Source: Pontiella sp. | Lineage (GTDB): Bacteria; Verrucomicrobiota; Kiritimatiellia; Kiritimatiellales; Pontiellaceae | Reading direction: 5' to 3' | DNA: 64,000 bases | Assembly (NCBI GenBank): GCA_050290185.1 | Contig: JBNKHE010000001.1 | Coordinates: forward strand, 450,713 to 514,712 | Part shown: positions 18,910 through 41,562 of the stretch, in pieces | How positions within the stretch are numbered: the first letter of the stretch is position 1 | Layout of the letters: every line of letters starts with the position of its first letter | Notes under the pieces: generated by a model | Seen by the model: the letters and a program-made list of their open reading frames with translations, nothing else | What the model was told of the DNA's origin: nothing | The model's database searches: none | Made by a program: the position numbers and the translations under genes

Positions 18910-20007
18910 CAGCAACCGAACAATATTGCGGACGGAAAACGCCAGGTCCTCAGGGGCGTGGGCCATGCATTCTGCCAGCGAAGTATGGCCGGCGGAGATG
19001 CTGAAGGCATAATCGAATGTGCCGAAGACCGCATCAAGGTCGCCATGCAGCGCCCCCGAAAGCAACAGGGTTTTCACTCCACGCTCACGAGCCATGCCCG
19101 CCAAAACGGCACACAGCTTACCGGAGGCTGTCTGTCTATCGGTCCGGCCTTCTCCCGTAATCAGCAGGTCGGCTTCTTCGAGCGCCTGCGGCAAGCCAAC
19201 GGTTTCCGCAACCAACTGAGCACCGGGAACAATGCGGGCCTGGCAAAACGCCCGCAGTCCATAGCCCAATCCTCCGGCGGCTCCGTCGCCGGGCTCCTCG
19301 GCTACACCAAGGATGGTTCGGAGATTGCCAAGCCCGGCATCAAGACGTTCGGTCATTTCCGGCGTGGCCCCCTTTTGCGGTCCAAATACATGGGCCGCGC
19401 CGTTTGGCCCAGTCAGCGGATTGGTCACATCGCAGGCCACCTGAATGTTCGCATCGGCCAGCGCCGGATGTACCGATGCGGAATCAACGGAATGAATGAC
19501 AGAAAGGATTCTACCGCCCCGTTCAGCAGTCTCATTCCCGTCGCGATCGAGGAAACGATAGCCCAGAGCCTGGGCCATGCCGGTGCCGCCATCGACCGTA
19601 GCGCTGCCTCCAATCCCCATCACAATGGAGGTGTGCCCCTCATCCAACATATGCCCAAGAATTTCACCCACCCCATATGTCGTAGTTTCCAAGGGGTTGA
19701 GCCGGTCATGCGGAACCAGTTCAATGCCGGCGGCCGAAGCCATTTCCATCACAGCAGTACCATCATGAAGAAGTCCATACTGCGCTTCAACGCGGTCTCC
19801 CAGCGCGCCGCAAACTTCCAAGGTATGCAAGGAGCCCCTGGTTGCCGCAACCATGGCATCAACCGTCCCTTCCCCACCATCTGCCATGGGGAACATCCAC
19901 ACCTCGGCATCGGGGCACTCGAGCAAAATAGCGTCCCGGATTATGGTGCAGATCGTCGAACTGCGCATATTGCCTTTGTAGGAATCCGGAGCAATTATGA
20001 TTTTCAT
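18898..20007 (-). CDS. Glycerate kinase
   Basis: IIAPDSYKG, PMADGGEGT, GIGGSATVDGG, GPQKGA, GAAGG, TGEG. Confidence 0.92.
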   Translation of the reverse strand: MKIIIAPDSYKGNMRSSTICTIIRDAILLECPDAEVWMFPMADGGEGTVDAMVAATRGSLHTLEVCGALGDRVEAQYGLLHDGTAVMEMASAAGIELVPHDRLNPLETTTYGVGEILGHMLDEGHTSIVMGIGGSATVDGGTGMAQALGYRFLDRDGNETAERGGRILSVIHSVDSASVHPALADANIQVACDVTNPLTGPNGAAHVFGPQKGATPEMTERLDAGLGNLRTILGVAEEPGDGAAGGLGYGLRAFCQARIVPGAQLVAETVGLPQALEEADLLITGEGRTDRQTASGKLCAVLAGMARERGVKTLLLSGALHGDLDAVFGTFDYAFSISAGHTSLAECMAHAPEDLAFSVRNIVRLLSAG

Positions 20008-20147
20008 GCGTCCTCCCGGTCTCATCGTAAACTGCGTTCAGTTTGTACGCTTGACCGGAGAAAGCAAGGCCACGCACCGGCTGTTTCAGGGAGGTTGAAG
20101 CGTTCATCGCTTGACACCGTCCGTTCGAAGGGGAAGTATGCGCCATC

Positions 20148-20275
20148 AATCGGATGATTCGGCAAGTCCCGTGGAAATCGGGCGCTGTCGCGCAACTGTA
20201 ATCGGCCAACGGGCCGTAAGCCAGAAAACGGACATCGGATTGCTTTTGTTTGTCTCCTTCGCGGAATAAGGGGAT
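20148..20275 (+). ncRNA. Cobalamin riboswitch, compact (class II-like)
   Basis: cccgtggaaatcggg T-loop arm, ctgtcgcgcaactgtaa, aagccag B12-box; closing helix aatcggatg/catcggatt; P13 loop cgcgg complementary to L5 tcgcg; upstream of btuB; TTGACA at 20111. Confidence 0.85.
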
Positions 20276-20368
20276 GGCTGCCGGTTCCTACGGTCTCCTT
20301 CCCTTTGTCCTTGCGCGGGATTTTAATTAACCGACTAGCGCCCCGCGTAAGGGCAGAATGGAATACCC

Positions 20369-22378
20369 ATGCAATACCGTATCCTCGCCGTGTTCGCACT
20401 TGCGGCAACCACAACGTTTGCCGACTCGACCAACACCCTATCCAACACCGGAACGCAGGATCCCAATACCATCCTGATCACCGCAACGCGCACGAAAAGC
20501 AGCGTGCAGAACATCCCCGGAAACCCTGTCGTCATCGACTCGGACGCAATCAGGCAGGGAGGATTCACATCGCTCCCCGCCATATTGAACAAGAAGGCCG
20601 GACTGCATTTCCGCAACTATTCCGACAACCCCGGCCGCGCCTCCGTGGATATGCGCGGATTTGGAGCGAACAGTCATGGCCGGGTGCTGGTCATGATGAA
20701 TGGCCGCCGCATTAACCGACCCGACCAGGCCCCGGTCAACTGGTCGCAGATTCCGGTCGGCAACATCGACCGCATCGAAGTCGTCCGGGGAGCACACAGT
20801 GCGCTGTACGGGGACTTTGCGGTGGGTGGAGCCATCAACATCATCACCCGTCGCGGCACGGGAAAACCCGAATTCGAGGCCAGCCTCACGGGTGGCTCGT
20901 ACGGATTCAACGACGAAAGCATCAGCGCTTCCGGCGATGCAGGCGATATCGGCTACTCCACATCCATCGGGCACCAGTCCGCCGACGGATACCGGGATCG
21001 GTCTGCCTATGAAACCTGGTCGGGCACACTGAGTCTCGAAACGGATTTTTCGGATTATCTGGGATCATGGATCGATTATTCCTACATCGACTCCGACTAC
21101 GAACTGCCCGGCAGCCTGACCGAGGCCCAGGTGCGGCAGGATCGACGGCAATCCATCAACCCCGACAACGATGCCGCGGAACAGTTCCACAACATCGGAT
21201 TCGGCCTCGGGCTTTATCCCAACGAAAACAACGAGGCAACAATCGATCTCGGATTCAGCCGCAAGGACATTGAATCGAACTTCGCATCGTATTCATCCTT
21301 CAACACATGGGGGATCAACACCTATACCCTCAGCCCGAAATATGTCTACTCGGCCACCCCCTTCCACCGTGAAAACAAACTGACCCTGGGGGTCGACTTA
21401 AGCTACGACGATCTGGATGTCGACCTCTACGGCGACCGGGCCCACACCATCCGGAACGGGTCGTCCGCCGTGGGAAAAGAAACCGCCGGCGCATACGTTC
21501 ACAACGAACTCGATATTCTCGACCATCTTATCCTGTCCGGAGGAGCCCGGGTTGAGCAGGCCAAATACAGCATCAAGGAGCGCGATGCCTTCGGCGTTGT
21601 GCAACAAGACACCAGCGATACCCACAAGATATCCGCCTTCGATGCCGGAATCACCTTCCTGCCGGTCGAGCCGCTGAAGCTCTTCGCCCGGATTGACAAA
21701 CTCTACCGCCTCCCGTTTCTCGACGAGCAAATCTCCTACCAGGGCTTCGGCTCCGGCTTCAACAAGGATCTAGATCCCGAAACCGGCATGTCGTACGAGA
21801 CCGGCTTCAACCTTGCGCCCTCCGATCAGCTCGATCTCTCATGCACCCTTTTCCGCATGGATATGAAAGACGAGATCGCCTATGTCTTTCCCTCCAACGT
21901 GAACCTCGACAAAACCCGCCACCAAGGGGTGGAGCTTTCCGGCAACTGGCAGGCACTCGAACATCTGGGCCTTTACGCAAACTACACGTTCCAAAAGGTC
22001 GAATTCACCGCCGGTGCAAACAAAGGCAACGAAGTCCCGCTCGTACCCCAAAACCTGCTGACGACTGGATTCGATGCCGAACTACTGGATAACCTGCACG
22101 TCCTGACTGACGTCACCTTCACAGACTCCCAGTTTGCCGGCGGAGCCGAAAACAACGCCGCGGGATCCGAGCTCGATGCCTACACGCTGGTGGACGTTGC
22201 TTTGCGCTACACCCTTGCCTTCAAAAAGTCCGAGGTGGAGCTGTTTGCCGGCATAGACAACCTGTTCGCGGAGGAATACAGCCCCATTGCGTATTACAGC
22301 ACGTTCTCCGGTAGCATCTATGCCTACTACCCCGCGCCGGAGCGCACCTACAAGGCCGGCGTCAAAGTACGGTTCTGA
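20369..22378 (+). CDS. btuB: TonB-dependent corrinoid receptor (BtuB-like)
   Basis: Signal peptide, ITATR TonB box, plug IDRIEVVRGAHSALYG, C-terminal F; downstream of B12 riboswitch. Confidence 0.85.
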   Translation: MQYRILAVFALAATTTFADSTNTLSNTGTQDPNTILITATRTKSSVQNIPGNPVVIDSDAIRQGGFTSLPAILNKKAGLHFRNYSDNPGRASVDMRGFGANSHGRVLVMMNGRRINRPDQAPVNWSQIPVGNIDRIEVVRGAHSALYGDFAVGGAINIITRRGTGKPEFEASLTGGSYGFNDESISASGDAGDIGYSTSIGHQSADGYRDRSAYETWSGTLSLETDFSDYLGSWIDYSYIDSDYELPGSLTEAQVRQDRRQSINPDNDAAEQFHNIGFGLGLYPNENNEATIDLGFSRKDIESNFASYSSFNTWGINTYTLSPKYVYSATPFHRENKLTLGVDLSYDDLDVDLYGDRAHTIRNGSSAVGKETAGAYVHNELDILDHLILSGGARVEQAKYSIKERDAFGVVQQDTSDTHKISAFDAGITFLPVEPLKLFARIDKLYRLPFLDEQISYQGFGSGFNKDLDPETGMSYETGFNLAPSDQLDLSCTLFRMDMKDEIAYVFPSNVNLDKTRHQGVELSGNWQALEHLGLYANYTFQKVEFTAGANKGNEVPLVPQNLLTTGFDAELLDNLHVLTDVTFTDSQFAGGAENNAAGSELDAYTLVDVALRYTLAFKKSEVELFAGIDNLFAEEYSPIAYYSTFSGSIYAYYPAPERTYKAGVKVRF

Positions 22379-22389
22379 TGGAATCAAGA

Positions 22390-22419
22390 AGCGGCTTCCT
22401 TGAAACCAAGGAAGCCGCT
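22390..22419 (+). other. 13-bp hairpin without U-tract (likely mRNA stabiliser)
   Basis: agcggcttccttg-aaac-caaggaagccgct. Confidence 0.6.
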
Positions 22420-22456
22420 AACATGCGTCTGCCGAAAAAGGAGACAGGAGATACCG

Positions 22457-23080
22457 ATGTACGAGTTGATGATCAAGGGCGGTCCGGTAATGTGGCCGTT
22501 GCTGGCCTGTTCAATAGTGGCGCTGGCCGTCGTCTTTGAGCGTCTCCTGTTCTGGTTGCTCGTTTCCATGCGCAAGAACCAGAAGCTCGTCAACCGCATC
22601 TTCACGCTGACCGAAAACGGCGACTTCGATACCGCCATCCAGGAAGGCGAAGCATCCCGTTGCCTGGTCTGTCGAATTCTCACTGCAGGGCTGGCGCACC
22701 GCAACTATGGCCTCGTCCAGTCGCTCGAAGCCGCCGCCATGCAGGAAATCGAAAAGATGAAGCGCTACCTCTCCGTGCTCGACACCATCATCACGCTCGC
22801 TCCCCTGCTCGGTATTCTCGGTACGGTCTCCGGCATCATCATCTCCTTTGACCTGCTTGGAACGGCGGGCATCGAGAACCCCAAGGCCGTCACTGGCGGT
22901 ATCGCCCAGGCGCTCCTCACCACCGCCGCCGGCCTCGCCATCGCCATCGTCGCCCTGCTCCCCTACAACGCCCTTACCCGCAAGGTCGAAAAGGTCACCC
23001 GCTATCTCGAACAGCTCGTCACCTGCTACGAAGTCACCGTCCAGAAGGGGATGGAGAACCGGCGGGATTCGACAAAATAA
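22457..23080 (+). CDS. exbB: MotA/TolQ/ExbB proton channel
   Basis: GGPVMWPL, APLLGILGTV.GII, GIAQALLTTAAGL; stop codon lies inside the left inverted repeat. Confidence 0.92.
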   Translation: MYELMIKGGPVMWPLLACSIVALAVVFERLLFWLLVSMRKNQKLVNRIFTLTENGDFDTAIQEGEASRCLVCRILTAGLAHRNYGLVQSLEAAAMQEIEKMKRYLSVLDTIITLAPLLGILGTVSGIIISFDLLGTAGIENPKAVTGGIAQALLTTAAGLAIAIVALLPYNALTRKVEKVTRYLEQLVTCYEVTVQKGMENRRDSTK

Positions 23081-23927
23081 TTAGGGACAAAATAATTCGA
23101 TGCCAATGGTTCCACAGCACCCAATCCGGCGGATTCCTGAAACGGAATTCCATGAGCTGGATTATGCAATCATGAAATTGGCTTTCGACACGCACAATGC
23201 TCTCGGTCGCTTTTATGACGAGAAGATTTACCAGGCTGAGCTGGCGAGAAACTGCAAACATTCCGGCATCGATATCTCGCTGGAATTCGAGATAAAACTG
23301 GTTCATGGCGACTATCAAAAACCGCTGTATATCGACCTACTGGCAGACAAAAGCTCGGTGTATGAACTCAAAGCGTGTTCCTGCATCGCAGAACCACATC
23401 GGATACAAGCGCTTAACTACCTCTTTGCCTCCGAGACGAAACATGGAAAAATCATAAATTTCCGCCCTAAATCCGTAGAGCACGAATTCGTCTCCACCCA
23501 ACTGGATCTTCATAAACGGCGGGAGTTCAGCATATCAGATGGAACGTGGGCATCGGGAACCCATGCTGACCAGTTAAAAGATCTAATTATCGCCCTACTC
23601 AATGACTGGGGTGCATTTTTCGATACCGACATTTATCTCGATGCCATATGCCACTTTCTCGGAGGAAAGGGTGCGGTCATTCGCGACACATCGATCCATA
23701 GCGACAATGCAGTAATAGGACGCCAAACCATACCACACCTCTCCGACACCGAGGCCTTCTGCCTGACCTCCGTATCAAAAAACATTCCGACCTATGAAAG
23801 CCACCTGATCCGATTTCTGAAACACACCAAGCTCGAAGCCATCCACTGGATAAATTTAAACCGTTCCAAAATTGGTTTTTCATCCCTGAATAGAAAATCA
23901 TTTTGTCCCTAATCATTTTGTCGAACC
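23061..23927 (+). mobile_element. Inserted element: GxxExxY nuclease gene between 30-bp inverted repeats
   Basis: IRs 23068-23097 and 23896-23925 (28/30); GAACC direct repeats at 23056-23060 and 23923-23927; removal restores the exbB/exbD ATGA overlap; visibly AT-richer than flanks. Confidence 0.7.
23100..23912 (+). CDS. GxxExxY protein (PD-(D/E)XK nuclease fold), long tandem-domain form
   Basis: HNALGRFYDEKIYQ, IDLL....VYELKA, HRIQALNYL, GKIINF. Confidence 0.88.
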   Translation: MPMVPQHPIRRIPETEFHELDYAIMKLAFDTHNALGRFYDEKIYQAELARNCKHSGIDISLEFEIKLVHGDYQKPLYIDLLADKSSVYELKACSCIAEPHRIQALNYLFASETKHGKIINFRPKSVEHEFVSTQLDLHKRREFSISDGTWASGTHADQLKDLIIALLNDWGAFFDTDIYLDAICHFLGGKGAVIRDTSIHSDNAVIGRQTIPHLSDTEAFCLTSVSKNIPTYESHLIRFLKHTKLEAIHWINLNRSKIGFSSLNRKSFCP

Positions 23928-23928
23928 C

Positions 23929-24336
23929 ATGAAACTAAACTGCGGATATGAAACGAAGAAGGCGCGGGTGGAAATGCTTCCGCTCATCGATGTCGTGTTT
24001 CTGCTACTCGTCTTCTTCATCTACGCCATGCTTTCCATGGTCGTTCATCACGGCCTGAAGGTGGACCTGCCATCGGCAGGAACCGCCACGCTGGAACAGA
24101 ACGACTACATCGCCATCACGATCGATGCCGACAACCGGATCTTTCTTGGCGGTGCCCCCATCGACATGGGCGAGCTTCCGGATCGCGTGCTTGAACTGCG
24201 CGGTGCGGAATCCAAACCTGTCTTCATCGACGGCGACGAGCTCGCGGATCTTGGCTTGGCGATCCAGTTGCTGGATATCCTGAAAAAATCGGGCATTGAG
24301 GAAGTTTCTTTTTCATGCAAGCAATCGCAACCATAG
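23929..24336 (+). CDS. exbD: ExbD/TolR protein
   Basis: MLPLIDVVFLLLVFF, VDLPSA, IDGD. Confidence 0.92.
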   Translation: MKLNCGYETKKARVEMLPLIDVVFLLLVFFIYAMLSMVVHHGLKVDLPSAGTATLEQNDYIAITIDADNRIFLGGAPIDMGELPDRVLELRGAESKPVFIDGDELADLGLAIQLLDILKKSGIEEVSFSCKQSQP

Positions 24337-24926
24337 TAAGACAGCCCATCCTTGCCGGGCTGCTGCTTTCCGTGGTCGCCCACATGGCCATACTGCATCG
24401 GCACGCCATCATTGCCCCGTTGCATACAACGCCCATCCCCGAACTGGAATCAGGCCGAACGGCGGTACAACTAACCCTGATGACGACGGCCTCCGAGGTG
24501 CACATGCCACAGGAGGAACCACTCCCCGTTCCGGAACAGAACCAGCCCTCGCAGAAAGCCACCGTGGAACCCGTTGCAACCAATGCCGTTCCCCCATCCG
24601 CACCCCGGGAACCCAATACGGCAACGGTGCCGACTGAAGATACCGGCATCACATCCGAGGCTGTGGTCGTCGGCACCTACCATCCTGTCTATCCGCATAT
24701 TTCGACACGGCGAAGAGAAGAAGGTTCTGTAATGATATCGGTTCAGGTGCTTTCCAACGGGACCCCGGGCATCGTTGAAATCCTTGAATCCAGCGGCTAT
24801 CGCAGGCTAGACCAGGCCGCCATTGATGGCGTCGGAAAAACGACTTTTAAACCCGCTCTGCAGGATGGTCTTCCTGTCGAATCCACCACGGAACTCACAT
24901 ACACCTTCAGGTTGACCGATGATTAA
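24315..24926 (+). CDS. tonB: TonB energy transducer
   Basis: N-terminal TM with SxxxH, Pro-rich linker, YP..RREEGSV, SSGYRRLDQAA. Confidence 0.85.
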   Translation: MQAIATIVRQPILAGLLLSVVAHMAILHRHAIIAPLHTTPIPELESGRTAVQLTLMTTASEVHMPQEEPLPVPEQNQPSQKATVEPVATNAVPPSAPREPNTATVPTEDTGITSEAVVVGTYHPVYPHISTRRREEGSVMISVQVLSNGTPGIVEILESSGYRRLDQAAIDGVGKTTFKPALQDGLPVESTTELTYTFRLTDD

Positions 24927-25824
24927 GCGGATCCCAATAGTACTACTTACCATCCTGCTTGCGGCCTGCGGACGGCACCCCCCCCCCCTGCCCGGGAATC
25001 CGGAGCGCATCGTTTCCATGGCACCGAGCATCACCGAATGCATCTTTGCCGCCGGCGGCGGTGACCGTCTGGTCGGGGTCAGCGCCTTCTGCACCTATCC
25101 GGAAGCCGTCCATCACCTGCCGGCGATCGGTGGATACACCGATACGAACTATGAAATGATTTATTCCCTAGAGCCGGATCTCGTGTTCATTCTCGATGAA
25201 CACGGTTCCGCCGCCGAACGTCTTGCCGCGCTGGGAATCCCCTCGTTCAAGGTGGACACCTCCACCATTCCCGCCATTCTCGAAAGCCTGCAGAACCTGG
25301 GATCACTCTTCCACACCGAAGAAACTGCCGACCTGGAAGTTGCCCGGCTGAAGCAACGGATGGAGGAAATCCAAACGCGAACACGCGATGCACCGCCCCG
25401 CCGCGTCCTCATTTCCGTCGGGCGCAACATAGGAACCGGGGACCTGTCCGATGTCTACGTCGCCGGGCGGAACACCCTCTATAATGAAATGCTCGAAATG
25501 CTTGGGGCGCAGAACGTCTATTCGGGCAACCTGGAATACGCCAAGCTCTCCCGCGAAGGCCTCATGCGGCTCGCCCCCGATGTCATTATCGATCTGGTTC
25601 CCGATCTGGCGTCCTACGGCAACCTGACCGCCGATGACGTTCGGCAGGAATGGAACATCCTGGCCAGCGTACCCGCCGTGCGGGACGGACAGGTCCATGT
25701 TTTGAGCAACAACTATGTCTGCATCCCCGGCCCGCGCTTCGTGCTCACATTCGAAGACATCGCCCGCGCCGTCTATCCCGAATGCTTCGCGGCAACAGCA
25801 CAAAATAATTTGGTGACAGAATAA
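24919..25824 (+). CDS. btuF: Corrinoid ABC transporter substrate-binding lipoprotein (BtuF-like)
   Basis: Lipobox LAAC, RIVSMAPSITE, LVGVS.FC.YP, PGPR. Confidence 0.85.
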   Translation: MIKRIPIVLLTILLAACGRHPPPLPGNPERIVSMAPSITECIFAAGGGDRLVGVSAFCTYPEAVHHLPAIGGYTDTNYEMIYSLEPDLVFILDEHGSAAERLAALGIPSFKVDTSTIPAILESLQNLGSLFHTEETADLEVARLKQRMEEIQTRTRDAPPRRVLISVGRNIGTGDLSDVYVAGRNTLYNEMLEMLGAQNVYSGNLEYAKLSREGLMRLAPDVIIDLVPDLASYGNLTADDVRQEWNILASVPAVRDGQVHVLSNNYVCIPGPRFVLTFEDIARAVYPECFAATAQNNLVTE

Positions 25825-25826
25825 TT
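25800..25826 (+). repeat. Solo degenerate copy of the GxxExxY element left IR
   Basis: acaaaataatttggtgacagaataatt versus acaaaataattagggacaaaataatt. Confidence 0.65.
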
Positions 25827-26615
25827 ATGTCCAAACCGGCCATCCATATCGAGAACCTGAACCTGAGCTTGTCCGGGAAAAACATCCTCGACGGGATTGC
25901 CCTGGAGGTGCAGCGCGGCGAGTATGTCTCGATCATCGGTCCGAACGGCGCAGGGAAAACCTCGCTCATCAAATGCATCGGCCACATCCATTCGAACTGG
26001 ACCGGATCGATCGCGGTCAACGGCAAGCCCTTGAACCGCTGCCCCCAACGCGAACTGGCTCGGCAGTTGAGCTATGTTCCGCAGGCCGAAGGACGCAGGC
26101 TGCCCTTCACCGTATTCGAGTTCGTGCTCATGGGGCGCTACCCGCATCTTTCCCCGTTCACCTCGGTCGGAGCAAACGACAAATGCATCGTCACCGAAAC
26201 GCTGGAACGGACCGGATTACTTCCGTTCAGCGGCCGCCGCCTTGACACGCTCAGCGGCGGTGAGCGGCAAATGGTATTCATTGCGGCGTCTCTTGCGCAA
26301 GGGGCGGAAATCCTGTTGCTGGACGAACCGACCTCCTTCCTCGACTATCGCCACCAGGCCCAGGTCATGCAGTTGCTAAGACGGTTGCACCGGCAAAACA
26401 ACATCACCATCGTATCCGTCAGCCACGATATCAATGCCGCCTGCGCGCAAAGCGACCGCATCGTGGCCCTTAAAAACGGAAAATGCGCATTCATCGACAC
26501 CCCGGAAAATGCCTTGAATGCCGAGCGGCTGGAAGCACTCTACGGAACCTCCTTCCTGATTGCCGACCACCCCTCCGGCAATGGGCGCATCGTTCTCGCG
26601 GAGGATCCCGCATGA
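25827..26615 (+). CDS. btuD: ABC transporter ATPase (BtuD/FepC-like)
   Basis: GPNGAGKT, LSGGERQ, LLLDEPT, SHD. Confidence 0.88.
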   Translation: MSKPAIHIENLNLSLSGKNILDGIALEVQRGEYVSIIGPNGAGKTSLIKCIGHIHSNWTGSIAVNGKPLNRCPQRELARQLSYVPQAEGRRLPFTVFEFVLMGRYPHLSPFTSVGANDKCIVTETLERTGLLPFSGRRLDTLSGGERQMVFIAASLAQGAEILLLDEPTSFLDYRHQAQVMQLLRRLHRQNNITIVSVSHDINAACAQSDRIVALKNGKCAFIDTPENALNAERLEALYGTSFLIADHPSGNGRIVLAEDPA

Positions 26616-27601
26616 AAACCGGCATAACCCTTTTCATCCTTGCCTGCATCGCATTGCTGACCCTGGCCATCGCGCCCATGATCGGTATCGATTTCATTCC
26701 ATGGTCGGCTATCTGGCACAACCCGGACGGCATGGAAGCCGGCATTCTGCGCGACCTGCGCATTCCGCGCACGCTGACCGGATTCCTCGTCGGCAGTGCG
26801 CTGGCCTTGAGCGGAATGACCTTCCAGGCCATGTTCCGCAACCCGCTCGCCACCCCCTTCACCCTTGGCACCGCCAGCGGCGCTTCGCTCGGCGCAGCAT
26901 TGTGCATTCGCTTCGGACTCACCTTCTCGTTCCTTGGGCTCACCGGCATCTCGTTCGCCGCCTTTGCCGGAAGCCTGCTGGCGGTCGGGCTCGTCTATGG
27001 CCTGACCCGGTTGAAAAAGGGATTCTCCACGGCCACCCTGCTGCTTGCCGGCGTGGCGGTCAGCTTTTTCTTTTCCAGCCTGATTCTGTTCATCAACTAC
27101 ATCAGCGGCTTTGCCAACACCTTCCGCATTATCCGGTGGATGATGGGATCGGTCGACCTCACCGGCTATGCCGGCCTTTCAAACATGCTCCCCTTCGTTT
27201 CGCTGGGCGCCTTGGGCATCGTGCTTTCCGCCAACGAACTGAACCTTCTCATGACCGGCGACGACATTGCAGCCAGTCGCGGAATGAATGTCGACCGGAC
27301 CAAGAAAATCCTCTTCGTGGCGACCGCGCTCATGATTGGCGGCGTAGTCGCCTTTTGCGGACCGATTGGATTCGTCGGCATGATGGCCCCCCATATTTGC
27401 CGGTTGATCATCGGCAACGAACATCGCGCGCTCATCCCCGCCACCGTACTCTTCGGCGGCACATTCCTCGTCGTATGCGATACGCTGGCACGCACCCTCA
27501 TCGCGCCGGTAGAAATGCCCGTCGGCGTCATTACTGCCCTGCTTGGCGGCCCCTTTTTCATCATTCTCCTGCTCAATAAAAAAGGAAACCTGGATCTATG
27601 A
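26612..27601 (+). CDS. btuC: ABC transporter permease (BtuC/FecCD family)
   Basis: LRIPR, FRNPLATP.TLG.ASGA, GPIGFVG..APH, EMPVGVIT..LGGPFF. Confidence 0.9.
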   Translation: MKTGITLFILACIALLTLAIAPMIGIDFIPWSAIWHNPDGMEAGILRDLRIPRTLTGFLVGSALALSGMTFQAMFRNPLATPFTLGTASGASLGAALCIRFGLTFSFLGLTGISFAAFAGSLLAVGLVYGLTRLKKGFSTATLLLAGVAVSFFFSSLILFINYISGFANTFRIIRWMMGSVDLTGYAGLSNMLPFVSLGALGIVLSANELNLLMTGDDIAASRGMNVDRTKKILFVATALMIGGVVAFCGPIGFVGMMAPHICRLIIGNEHRALIPATVLFGGTFLVVCDTLARTLIAPVEMPVGVITALLGGPFFIILLLNKKGNLDL

Positions 27602-29115
27602 GCGCGCGCTGCATCGCATTGCTCGGCACCGGCTCCGACGTCGGCAAAAGCGTCGTGGTCGCCGCGCTCTGCCGCATCTTCAAAAACCGCGGCATCTCCG
27701 TGGCGCCCTACAAGGCCCAGAACATGTCGAACAACTCCTACGTCACCCTCGAAGGCGGAGAAATGGGACGGGCGCAAGTGGTGCAGGCCGAAGCCTGCGG
27801 CCTCGAACCGCATACCGACATGAACCCCGTTTTGCTCAAACCCAACACCGATCTCGGCGCGCAGGTGGTCTTGCACGGACACGCCATCGGCAACGCCCTG
27901 GCCGCAGACTATTTCAAGGATACGCGCCATCTGTTCAACAAGGCCAACGAGAGCCTCGCCCGACTCAAGGAAAAATATGAGCTGGTGGTCATCGAGGGTG
28001 CCGGTTCCTGCGCCGAGGTCAATCTGCGCTCCCGCGACTTCGTCAACTTCGAGACCGCCCATGCCGCCGACGCCCCCGTCGTCATCATTGCCGACATCGA
28101 CCGCGGCGGGGTATTCGCCCAGATTGTCGGAACCTTGGAAATCATCCCTGAAAAGGACCGGGCCCGCGTGGCCGGCTTCATCATCAACAAGTTCCGGGGC
28201 GATGCCGCGCTGTTCGACGACGGCATCCAATATCTGGAGGAAAAGACCGGCCTGCCGATGCTCGGCCTGATCCCCTACTACCGCCATATCGAGATCGACC
28301 CCGAAGACGGAATGCCGCTTGAAACCGTCATCGACCCGCCCACACGACCGTTGCCGGGAAAGATCAATGTCGCCGCCATTCGTCTGCCGCACATCTCGAA
28401 CTTCACCGACTTCAACCCGTTGATCCGCAACGAACGGGTCTCCTTCCACTATCTATCGAAATCCCGTTCGCTCGACGGCTACGACGCGCTGATGCTCCCC
28501 GGAACCAAGAACGTCCGCTTCGACCTCCAATGGCTCAAGGACACCGGATGGGAAAACCCGATCCGCGAATTCTCCGAAAGCGGCGGCCACGTGCTTGGCA
28601 TTTGCGGCGGCTACCAGATGCTGGGCCGCCAGGTGCACGATCCGCACGGCATCGAAGGCGAGCCCGGAACCACGGACGGCTTTGGACTACTTGACATCCA
28701 AACCACGCTCAAAAAAGAAAAGGTGCTCTCCCGCTCGCAGGGAATCCTTGCCGGCGGAATACGCATCGATGGCTACGAAATCCACATGGGAAAAACCGCG
28801 CTGGGCGGCGATGCCGCGCCCATGGTCTTCGTGCAATCCCGGAACCGGCACCCCGTCGAGGATACCGACGGAGCGGTTTCCCCCGACGGAAGAATCAAGG
28901 GTTCCTATTTCCACGGCCTGTTTGATTTTCCCGAATTCCGCAACCACTACCTGAAACGGCTCAATCCCGATTATCCGGCCGAAGAAGCGCAAGCCGCCGC
29001 CGACTTCAAGCAATCCCAATACGACCTGCTCGCCGAACATTTCGAGCAGCACCTCGACATGGATAGACTCCTGTCGATCACCTTCGCTAAAAATCAATCC
29101 CCTTGCGGGCTTTGA
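27598..29115 (+). CDS. cobQ: Cobyric acid synthase
   Basis: GTGSDVGKS, KAQNMSNNS, MNPVLLKP, EGAGS, DIDRGG, SNFTDF, GICGGYQMLG, GYEIH. Confidence 0.95.
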   Translation: MSARCIALLGTGSDVGKSVVVAALCRIFKNRGISVAPYKAQNMSNNSYVTLEGGEMGRAQVVQAEACGLEPHTDMNPVLLKPNTDLGAQVVLHGHAIGNALAADYFKDTRHLFNKANESLARLKEKYELVVIEGAGSCAEVNLRSRDFVNFETAHAADAPVVIIADIDRGGVFAQIVGTLEIIPEKDRARVAGFIINKFRGDAALFDDGIQYLEEKTGLPMLGLIPYYRHIEIDPEDGMPLETVIDPPTRPLPGKINVAAIRLPHISNFTDFNPLIRNERVSFHYLSKSRSLDGYDALMLPGTKNVRFDLQWLKDTGWENPIREFSESGGHVLGICGGYQMLGRQVHDPHGIEGEPGTTDGFGLLDIQTTLKKEKVLSRSQGILAGGIRIDGYEIHMGKTALGGDAAPMVFVQSRNRHPVEDTDGAVSPDGRIKGSYFHGLFDFPEFRNHYLKRLNPDYPAEEAQAAADFKQSQYDLLAEHFEQHLDMDRLLSITFAKNQSPCGL

Positions 29116-29698
29116 TACCGGCCTCGTAGGCGTGCTTGACGCTGTTGATTTCCGCAACGGTGTCCGCCAACTCGCGGATCGCATTGCCCCCACCGCGCCC
29201 CGTAACAACAACGGTCTGCTCGCGCGGTCGGTTGCGAATGGCTTCGAGCACCATCTCTTCGTCGAGGTATTTGTAGCCCAGCATGTAGGTCAGCTCATCG
29301 AGCACGACCAGATGCAGGCTTTCGTCCTTGAGCAACCGTTCAGCAAAGGCCCAGGTCTTTTCGGCCGCGGCCATATCGCCCGCGCGGTCCTGCGTATCCC
29401 AGGTAAAGCCCGTTCCCATTTGGTAGAACGGCAGGTCGGGATAGTTTTCGCGGATGAACAATTCCTCCCCGCTCAGCTGCTTTCCCTTGATAAACTGCAC
29501 GAGGCCAACCTTGTGGCCATAACCCAGGCAACGCATGATCATGCCGAAGGCCGAGGTCGTCTTGCCCTTCCCGTTCCCCGTGAGCAGAATCACGATGCCA
29601 CGCTCCTCCGTGGCCATCGCGATTTGACTATCCACCCGCTCCTTCTGGTGTGCCATTTCGAATTTGTGCTTCAACTGCGCCCGTCTTTGCTCGTCCAT
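29087..29698 (-). CDS. cobO: Cob(I)alamin adenosyltransferase
   Basis: TGNGKGKTTSAFG, QFIKG, GFTW, LDEL, TGR, KH, GIDF. Confidence 0.93.
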   Translation of the reverse strand: MDEQRRAQLKHKFEMAHQKERVDSQIAMATEERGIVILLTGNGKGKTTSAFGMIMRCLGYGHKVGLVQFIKGKQLSGEELFIRENYPDLPFYQMGTGFTWDTQDRAGDMAAAEKTWAFAERLLKDESLHLVVLDELTYMLGYKYLDEEMVLEAIRNRPREQTVVVTGRGGGNAIRELADTVAEINSVKHAYEAGIKARKGIDF

Positions 29699-29777
29699 GA
29701 AAATCCTCCATATAATATAGCCAAAACTATGTCACAAACCGAATTGTCGGAACAATCCAATCCGTTAGAATGCGCCC

Positions 29778-30572
29778 ATGAATTCCATTGAAGAAAAAGA
29801 ACAGACCTTGCTCGAAGAGCTCAAATCCTACGGCGCCTTGGCCGTCGCCTATTCCGGAGGGGTCGACTCCACCTATCTGGCTGACTGCGCGCACGAGATG
29901 CTGGGCCACAACGCCATGATGGTGATTGCCGATTCCCCATCGATTCCCCGCGAAGAGCTGCAGGCGGCCATCGATATGGCCACTGCTCGCGGCTGGAACC
30001 TGCGTATTATAAAAACCAGCGAACACCTCAACGACGAATATCTTCAAAACAAGGGTGACCGGTGCTTCCATTGCAAAAACGAGCTGTTCACCAGAATGGA
30101 GGACATCCTTTCTGAATTCGACGACAATATCGTACTCGCACATGGCGCCATCGAGGACGACAAGGGCGACATCCGCCCCGGCACACAGGCTGCCGCCAAC
30201 CATTGCGTTGTCGCCCCGCTGCAAAATGCGGAACTCTACAAAAAGGACATCCGCATACTCAGTGAACGGCGCGGCCTGCCCACCGCCCGCAAGGCCTCCT
30301 TCGCCTGCCTCGGCTCGCGCTTCCCCACAGGAACCCCCATCGACCTCGAATCCATGACCCGGATCGAAAAGGCCGAAGCCATTTTGCGCGCCCGCGGCTA
30401 CCGCCAATACCGCGTCCGCCACCACGGCGACCTCTGCCGCATCGAGATCGATCCGATCGATTTCGACAAACTGATGCATGAGCGCACCGAAGTGGTCGAT
30501 GCCATCAAGAAAACCGGCTATCGGTTTGTCACCCTCGACCTCACCGGCTACACGATGGGATCGAGCGCGTAA
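29778..30572 (+). CDS. larE: ATP-dependent sacrificial sulfur transferase, LarE family
   Basis: AYSGGVDS PP-loop, RCFHCK, DIRPG, ACLGSR, RVRHHG, FVTLDL.GY.MGS. Confidence 0.85.
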   Translation: MNSIEEKEQTLLEELKSYGALAVAYSGGVDSTYLADCAHEMLGHNAMMVIADSPSIPREELQAAIDMATARGWNLRIIKTSEHLNDEYLQNKGDRCFHCKNELFTRMEDILSEFDDNIVLAHGAIEDDKGDIRPGTQAAANHCVVAPLQNAELYKKDIRILSERRGLPTARKASFACLGSRFPTGTPIDLESMTRIEKAEAILRARGYRQYRVRHHGDLCRIEIDPIDFDKLMHERTEVVDAIKKTGYRFVTLDLTGYTMGSSA

Positions 30573-40983: not shown

Positions 40984-41562
40984 TTAGACGCGACGACGCT
41001 TGGGCGGGCGGCATCCATTGTGCGGAATAGCGGTGGTGTCCTTGATTGCGGTAACAGCGAGACCGGCGGCCTGAATGGCACGGACGGCGGATTCGCGGCC
41101 GGCACCGGGACCCTGCACGCGAACTTCAACTTCGGACATGCCGTGGCTGATTGCGGTACGGGCGGCATCCTGAGCAACCGTGGTGGCTGCGAACGCCGTG
41201 CTCTTGCGCGAACCCTTGAAGTTACAGCGACCGGCACTGCTCCAGGAAATCACATTACCACGCATGTCCGTGATCGAAACGATGGTGTTGTTGAAGGTGG
41301 TCTTAACGAAAGCGATACCGAACGGGACATTCTTGGAACCCTTCTTACGCTTGATCGGCTCGATCTTTTCGTCGGCCAGAAGATCGGCTGCGGTCGGCAG
41401 ACGGCTCTTCTTTTCTTCGGAGGGTTGCTCTGCAGCTGCTTCCGTTTTCGCTTCGGCGGCGGGTTTTTCAGCAGCGGCTTCGGTTTTCACTTCAGCTTCA
41501 GCGGCAACCGGTGCAGCTTGCTCAACCACTTTTTCTTCTACTTCTTTTTGTTCTTCTGCCAT
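40984..41562 (-). CDS. rpsK: 30S ribosomal protein S11 with long N-terminal extension
   Basis: [34 protein letters not shown]. Confidence 0.96.

Follow-up and report, generated by a model that had tools for sequence, protein, structure and literature searches.

The insert between exbB and exbD in a 64,000-nt stretch of Pontiella sp. DNA (the window) is rather probably a one-gene selfish cassette, whose two-domain protein likely binds the word repeated in its own terminal arms and likely nicks beside them, thereby driving sideways copying of the cassette into the same junction. That the protein reads its own arms is suggested mainly by the covariation of residue 134 with base 3 of the arm word, and the cargo nuclease would, judging from sequence comparison, both cut the DNA and mobilise the cassette.

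The cassette and its host operon

The locus comprises the following features (window coordinates).

22457..23080, + strand: exbB (host gene; PF01618), an ORF with stop, whose last codons enter the left arm, which supplies the TAA
23061..23067, no strand: left flank of the insert, between the divergence point of the empty alleles and the arm; ragged ends among full alleles
23068..23097, + strand: left arm, two units of the word GACAAAATAATT at a 15-nt period (word consensus over 98 loci)
TAA 23078, TAG 23082, TAA 23093: stops inside the left arm
23083-87: AGGGA in the left arm, 12 nt upstream of the cargo ATG
23100-23912, + strand: cargo ORF (270 aa), the sole ORF of the insert, with its TAA (23910-12) within the right arm
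23100..23519, + strand: cargo domain 1, residues 1-140, GxxExxY / PDDEXK_3, with G36, E41, Y44, E62, D79, E89 and K91, and Q134 near its end
23520..23912, + strand: cargo domain 2, residues 141-270, a degenerate repeat of domain 1 that lacks the catalytic acidic residues and lysine
23896..23925, - strand: right arm, an inverted copy of the left arm, 28/30
23929..24336, + strand: exbD (host gene; PF02472)
25799..25826, + strand: single left arm at the btuF/btuD junction of the same operon, a relic of a second, paralogous cassette

According to profile searches, the operon products are a TonB-dependent receptor, ExbB, ExbD, TonB, a periplasmic binding protein and a CobQ-like protein; the names btuF, btuD and btuC for the ABC genes, and cbiP for the last gene, derive from operon context. 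Rfam searches of window positions 19500-30000 returned no match, including a cobalamin riboswitch upstream of the receptor gene. The 28/30 identity of the arms at 23068-23097 and 23896-23925, each composed of two 15-nt units, agrees with the description in an earlier note on this DNA, which had also stated that the arms provide stops for exbB (TAA 23078-80) and for the cargo gene (TAA 23910-12), and that a PD-(D/E)XK protein is the only cargo, with no DDE, HUH or recombinase domain. Both statements were borne out, PF13366 and TIGR04256 being the sole Pfam and NCBIfam matches. The stop of btuF is supplied by the single arm at 25799-25826. In a separate part of the window, 41418-41493 consists of two tandem copies of 39 nt that are 81% alike.

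In a sample of the genus, exbB was detected at E 1e-70 in 38 of 53 genomes, 37 of which are callable at the junction (G340 ends before it). With allele classes assigned by eye, 11 of these junctions are full (two of them cut by contig ends) and 13 are empty, so that the gene, whose fixation across the clade had been considered as an alternative, is not fixed here: 13 of 37 callable genomes lack it at this junction. The remaining 13 comprise seven heptamer-type repeats, four short spacers and two relics of the cassette. The heptamer-type inserts replace the cassette in L103, L107, L117, L119, L123, L127 and L137, a difference found even in so close a pair on rpoB as G342 and G304.

Deletion of 23061-23927 from the window sequence yields exactly the join that had been proposed as the empty site. 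The empty alleles of relatives resemble this proposal in length, the exbD ATG lying 35 nt past the anchor in 12 of 13 (32 nt in the other), and in the position of the Shine-Dalgarno (SD) motif, with GGAG or GGAA 5 nt upstream of the ATG in several of them, but they differ from it in letters: in all 13, exbD starts with ATGC and overlaps exbB by 10 nt, instead of the predicted ATGA. An ATGA start is found in all nine full alleles with exbD on the contig. Relatives without the gene do not, to this extent, have an outright different junction, though the real empty junction is spelled differently.

GAACC flanks the insert on both sides, which had been treated as meaningful, but of the nine full alleles for which both ends are available, only those of G000 (the genome of the window) and of the nearly identical G348 show it, and the right-hand GAA (23923-25) is itself part of the right arm. 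A GAACC target duplication was rejected on the basis of this allele comparison and of 92 long-form loci with no excess of direct repeats: short direct repeats outside the arms average 4.0 nt at these loci versus 3.9 nt in mismatched pairs, the insertions being old and their ends eroded. In contigs of four DNA runs from one study, which drop rare variants, no clean-loss join for this strain was found. The joins in these contigs were ATGC-type empty junctions of related organisms and, elsewhere, gene-less hairpins; one further join, 23058-23927 with unknown letters between, came from an 88%-identical contig and was left uncounted.

Arms and the two-domain protein

Inverted arms accompany the long form of the gene generally. 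Both flanks are available for 119 of 133 distinct long-form loci, and arms (score at least 12) are present at 114 of the 119, compared with 1 of 78 displaced control windows, so that the search for flanking inverted repeats at homologues, suggested in the earlier note, gave a positive answer for two-domain loci. A CARAATNAT-type word is found forward on both arms in 98 of the 114, mostly with a period of 15 or 16. Within the genome, a loose arm-dimer pattern occurs at 19 places, versus 3 and 1 in two order-4 Markov copies, and at four of these places an inverted pair that encloses no gene lies between co-oriented genes. In G000, two long stretches that contain arms and resemble each other (C4:29838 and C4:49058) lie in inverted orientation 19 kb apart. 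Across 301 genomes of the phylum, the long gene is present in 22, and at least five exact arm dimers occur in 15 of the 22 genomes with it versus 1 of the 279 without it, kin not being independent in these counts; the reversed dimer pattern was never matched in the 301 genomes. The exception, G313, contains 31 arm dimers, and searches there found no long gene, only short GxxExxY genes with other arms. No long form was found in viral contigs, in plasmids or in 300 further genomes drawn around G353.

The cargo matches TIGR04256 with 70.5 bits (cut-off 35) and PF13366 with 74 bits (cut-off 22) over residues 19-128, where the GxxExxY motif reads G36-R-F-Y-D-E41-K-I-Y44. In its structural model (pLDDT 96), the same order of elements appears twice, the C-terminal 130 residues forming a second copy of the domain that the earlier note had missed. 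An alignment of the profiles of the two halves spans 106 columns (probability 79.7, P 1.5e-5), and its score of 33 exceeds the maximum of 18.4 reached by 30 controls that were reversed or shuffled; the relationship became clear only with a wider alignment, an earlier comparison having been weak (probability 5.7 in local mode, nothing in global mode). Structural matches are middling for domain 1 (Cas4 SSO0001, Z 7.6, rmsd 4.2, 100 aligned; BpuSI, Z 7.5, rmsd 2.9, 93 aligned), and domain 2, folded alone, best matches restriction-endonuclease folds with modest Z (3ijm 5.9, BglII 5.8). Foldseek gave no match for the cargo at E 0.001, and the PADLOC profiles (2023 library) gave none at E 0.1.

Across 140 diverse homologues, E41, E89 and K91 are conserved in all, D79 in 138 and E62 in 130, and the equivalent positions of domain 2 contain no such residues. 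The cargo is thus a tandem duplication with a predicted live site in the first domain alone, one per chain, and because of this single predicted site it would be expected to nick rather than to cut both strands. For seven diverged pairs, dN/dS is 0.05-0.16 in domain 1 and 0.10-0.41 in domain 2 (the pair G000/G348 is too near-identical for such a reading), which indicates that both domains are under purifying selection. For the two-domain form, 458 clusters at 50% identity reach E 1e-30.

The evidence for arm reading comes from a scan for association between 270 cargo columns and the individual bases of the word among 76 representatives, in which residue 134, picked after the fact, stood out for base 3 (z 15.7). 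Ser or Thr occurs with G in 44 of these representatives, other residues with A in 21 and other residues with G in 5, with seven independent pairs (median p 0.06, quick tree). In a held-out test with the prediction fixed beforehand, 38 of 54 loci were callable, and Ser/Thr was accompanied by G in 25 of 25 and other residues by A in 9 of 13, some of the held-out loci being near training loci (three at 95-100%) or duplicates; all four misses are Arg. When the data were pooled below 85% identity (113 rows), Ser/Thr was found with G in 70 of 70, and Gly, Lys, Asn or Gln with A in 25 of 26; Arg was accompanied by A in 8 and by G in 7 rows, and Leu and Pro occurred with G. Base 3 changes 15 times on the tree, and of nine independent pairs 6.6 go in the same direction and none in the opposite one (median p 0.016, quick tree). 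The cargo of the window has Q134 together with a CAAAAT arm word. Other covarying residues (139, 132 and 14) have too few independent pairs or weaker support. The covariation suggests that the cargo protein binds its arms directly.

The arms could also act in RNA, as the earlier note proposed: by pairing in the transcript, they would have the insert looped out or removed and keep exbD translated. We consider this highly improbable. Pairing itself is well predicted (mean pair probability 0.83 in the folded transcript; duplex -32.6 kcal/mol), and 70 of 86 cassettes lie between co-oriented ORFs versus 16 of 86 for the opposite strand, but the arm mismatches have no G-U bias (64 on the mRNA strand versus 92 on the other strand, plus 164 transversions), ribosomes on exbB and on the cargo gene run into both arms, and single-arm relics persist ahead of intact genes. 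Spacers agree more within a locus (0.81) than between loci (0.43), which also fits selection for pairing and leaves room for some role of pairing or for copying of one arm from the other, but agreement at the variable base 7 of the word is no better between arms (0.65) than between units of one arm (0.62), which speaks against the RNA reading. The loop-out is in addition superfluous for exbD, which needs no rescue: the cargo stop lies 16 nt before its ATG, so that translational coupling would explain its expression, and SD-less starts are common in this genome, where an SD-like 4-mer is present at just 410 of the 899 long ORFs whose start is clear. Translation likely runs through the insert into exbD by such coupling, and the host would tolerate the cassette because the upstream gene finds its stop in the left arm and only 16 nt separate the end of the cargo from exbD.

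Spread, junction fidelity and decay

Each cargo lineage keeps to one junction: exbB/exbD, btuD/btuC (in a related family), btuF/btuD or btuC/cbiP. Two further cargo junctions, which we take to be nadC/coaX and nucleoside phosphorylase/cytidine deaminase, are tight and empty in G000. The original description of a minimal element that inserts at gene junctions holds in that the element is bounded by arms, lacks a transposase and is absent in relatives; with one junction per cargo lineage, its insertion is less free than this description implied.

The 11 cargos at exbB/exbD form one clade (100/99). Full and empty alleles are interleaved on the host trees, with seven changes on exbB+exbD and six on rpoB. 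In AU tests, for which the groups were named after the trees had been seen, the empties as one clade were rejected on rpoB (p 3e-85, quick tree), a host clade was rejected by the cargo data (p 3e-66), and two cargo clades were rejected by the flanking genes on the same contigs (p 0.0011 and 1.5e-76). Two of three cargo clades were also rejected by rpoB (p 0.0004 and 2e-8), which did not reject the window's own cargo pairing of G000 with G001 (p 0.073). G348, with an exbB 99% identical to that of G000 and an rpoB nearly identical to that of G011, is probably a mixed assembly and was excluded from the rpoB AU tests; since the exbB/exbD conflict lies on the same contigs, mixed bins cannot cause it. 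A concatenated operon protein tree was set aside for uneven missing data. The tree conflict argues for lateral spread of the cassette into its cognate site, with the exception of G000 and G001 on rpoB. No rise in flank identity near the junction was found in 30-nt windows, and no co-conversion tract; because flank identity is flat, little host DNA would appear to move, namely the cassette and perhaps ten or twenty bases.

Two alternatives bear on this pattern. In the first, the cassette would be a passive passenger, whose protein binds the arms for self-regulation or has a host function, such as SsnA-like filtering of incoming single-stranded DNA, and which changes genomes when host recombination in the flanking genes swaps it. 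Genomes with cargos of the same clade have flanks of only about 70-82% identity, with no converted tract, and sequences so diverged are poor substrates for host recombination. Several paralogous lineages at different junctions of one operon also speak against a passenger, as does the frequent decay to relics, which is more in keeping with a selfish cycle than with a gene that is needed. That each lineage is strictly faithful to one junction would be expected of a passenger, covariation and purifying selection fit any arm-binding function, and Chenal et al. (PMC11893778) report a host role of SsnA in an NTS-ssnA-NTS arrangement. In view of these points on both sides, we regard a passive passenger as unlikely.

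In the second alternative, classical homing, the nuclease would cut the empty exbB/exbD junction and repair would copy the cassette in, the arms being secondary. Site fidelity, lateral spread and decay together make up a homing cycle, and a single-chain duplication recalls monomeric LAGLIDADG enzymes. PD-(D/E)XK homing endonucleases exist as well, Ssp6803I being one (PMC3424549). Nevertheless, the variable residue tracks the arm word, which is absent from the empty site, no co-conversion tract extends past the first codons of exbD, and only one active site is predicted, all of which makes classical homing distinctly improbable.

For the self-mobilising selfish cassette, the following course can be proposed. 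The protein would bind the repeated word in its own arms, its single active site would nick beside them, and the cassette would be delivered along with a handful of bases from its flanks; the short homology of these bases to the ends of the genes may account for the fidelity to one junction. New site lineages would be founded when a cassette, on rare occasions, jumps to another tight junction, and copies would decay in place from the full form through internal deletion to a hairpin and a single arm. The empty junction has no arm word, so that arm recognition alone does not explain how an empty site is found.

A decay series of this kind is present at btuF/btuD, with lengths of about 790 nt in four genomes, a length of 467 nt, hairpins of 60-100 nt that sometimes retain the first codons of the cargo, single arms and tight overlaps. 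A full-length paralogous cassette occupies this junction in G338, G352, G022 and G016. At the same junction, G009 and G334 (L122 and L119) are apparently empty, yet contain half an arm word, the ATGA of which is the btuD start; this suggests secondary loss by short-homology deletion. At each of the junctions purA/uppS and nifU/nifS (L325-L384), both of which hold hairpins in the window genome, no fewer than four unrelated arm families take turns with tight empty alleles across the genus, and a short GxxExxY cassette fills nifU/nifS in 4 of 28 genomes (G007, G339, G016 and G021). No full long cassette was found at these hairpin junctions in 29 callable purA/uppS and 28 callable nifU/nifS relatives, taken from the best 30 of 50 and the best 30 of 40 genomes with a match. 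As the same junctions take unrelated repeat families, a shared host process could explain their occupancy, which counts against the selfish cassette.

Known elements and the GxxExxY family

The layout alone has precedents in REPtrons, TIRtrons and NTS-ssnA-NTS, and the behaviour parallels that of homing endonuclease genes. REPtrons and REPINs with RAYT (PMC3116915) and TIRtrons with TIRYT (PMC3733652) share with the cassette a single nuclease-type gene that stands between inverted repeats cognate to it, scattered intergenic inverted pairs that lack the gene, and a repeat type specific to the gene lineage. RAYT and TIRYT are described there as HUH tyrosine transposases, whereas the cargo is a PD-(D/E)XK protein, both domains of which model as restriction-endonuclease folds, with no HUH match in Pfam or NCBIfam at E 0.1. 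REP palindromes bear a GTAG/CGTC tag in these accounts, whereas the single arms here do not fold, consist of tandem 15-16-nt words and have no tag. The copies also number tens, not the hundreds given for REPtrons, and the full cassette changes hosts at one junction.

The Ssn nucleases with their NTS/SRM repeats (Chenal et al. 2025, PMC11893778) are likewise encoded by a small gene flanked on both sides by a repeat, which Ssn is proven to recognise and the cargo protein would be expected to. Protein-repeat pairs co-evolve in both, and an IS-like origin has been proposed for Ssn. Ssn enzymes are of the GIY-YIG type, unlike the cargo, a two-domain PD-(D/E)XK chain in which GIY-YIG was not matched; SRMs are described as hairpins on their own, which single cassette arms do not form; and the activity of Ssn, site-specific cleavage of single-stranded DNA close to the repeat, is demonstrated there, whereas the covariation in the cassette suggests recognition only. 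Homing endonuclease genes, exemplified by I-Ssp6803I (PMC3424549), resemble the cassette in fold class, site-faithful lateral spread, decay and loss. By comparison with them, the cassette has no intron or intein (its ORF is free-standing, with no Rfam match in 19500-30000) and possesses terminal arms, and the sequence evidence points to its own ends, rather than an empty target, as what is recognised.

Insertion sequences and MITEs also have terminal inverted arms and gene-less derivatives, and PMC3424549 lists TnsA of Tn7 as a PD-(D/E)XK transposition nuclease. Unlike insertion sequences, the cassette has no DDE, HUH or recombinase domain and no target duplication signal (92 old, end-eroded loci), and each lineage has a single copy in a genome, always at its fixed junction, with none on the plasmids and viral contigs searched. 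The cassette may represent a new class, since for every known kind the enzyme or structure that defines it was looked for and found to be lacking. In this tentative proposal, which we consider possible, with the odds somewhat against it, a PD-(D/E)XK nickase, in effect a pseudo-dimer within one chain that has a single live site, would read the tandem end word via a residue-134 code, lift the cassette with a few flanking bases and home into matching junctions of other species with no transposase, recombinase, intron or target duplication, and would also move gene-less hairpins. If the protein is instead an SsnA-like host factor, the claim to a new class falls. No published description of such a cassette was found in the literature searched, which takes in few subscription papers; such loci may be listed in the supplements of PMC11893778 or PMC3733652.

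If the enzyme drives the spread, the cassette would represent a route of gene movement with a REPtron- or Ssn-like layout and homing-like behaviour that has the enzyme of neither. The natural series of full, empty and relic alleles at one junction makes its function directly testable. For the GxxExxY family, the locus offers a candidate substrate, the arm word, and an apparent one-residue specificity switch that held on new loci; if these are true, the family would constitute an extensive natural collection of small nicking enzymes, sequence-specific and with targets that can be read. Proteins with GxxExxY abound, with at least 7,924 clusters for one short query, and in PMC3424549 the function of the family (TIGR04256 / PF13366 PDDEXK_3) is listed as unknown. 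Domain 1 of the cargo is a member as so defined, and the cargo differs from the family by its tandem degenerate second copy and its own arm word. That word was found at none of 15 single-domain or other GxxExxY loci examined, and most of the short GxxExxY genes examined have arms built of other words. An apparently separate two-domain GxxExxY form, a 251-residue open frame missed by the long-form profile, occurs at L092 (G304 C120), the left flank of which is cut by the contig end. A second GxxExxY gene of G000 (L001:1466-1885, on C2) is single-domain, encodes 123 aa and has its own inverted arms of a CACAGAG word.
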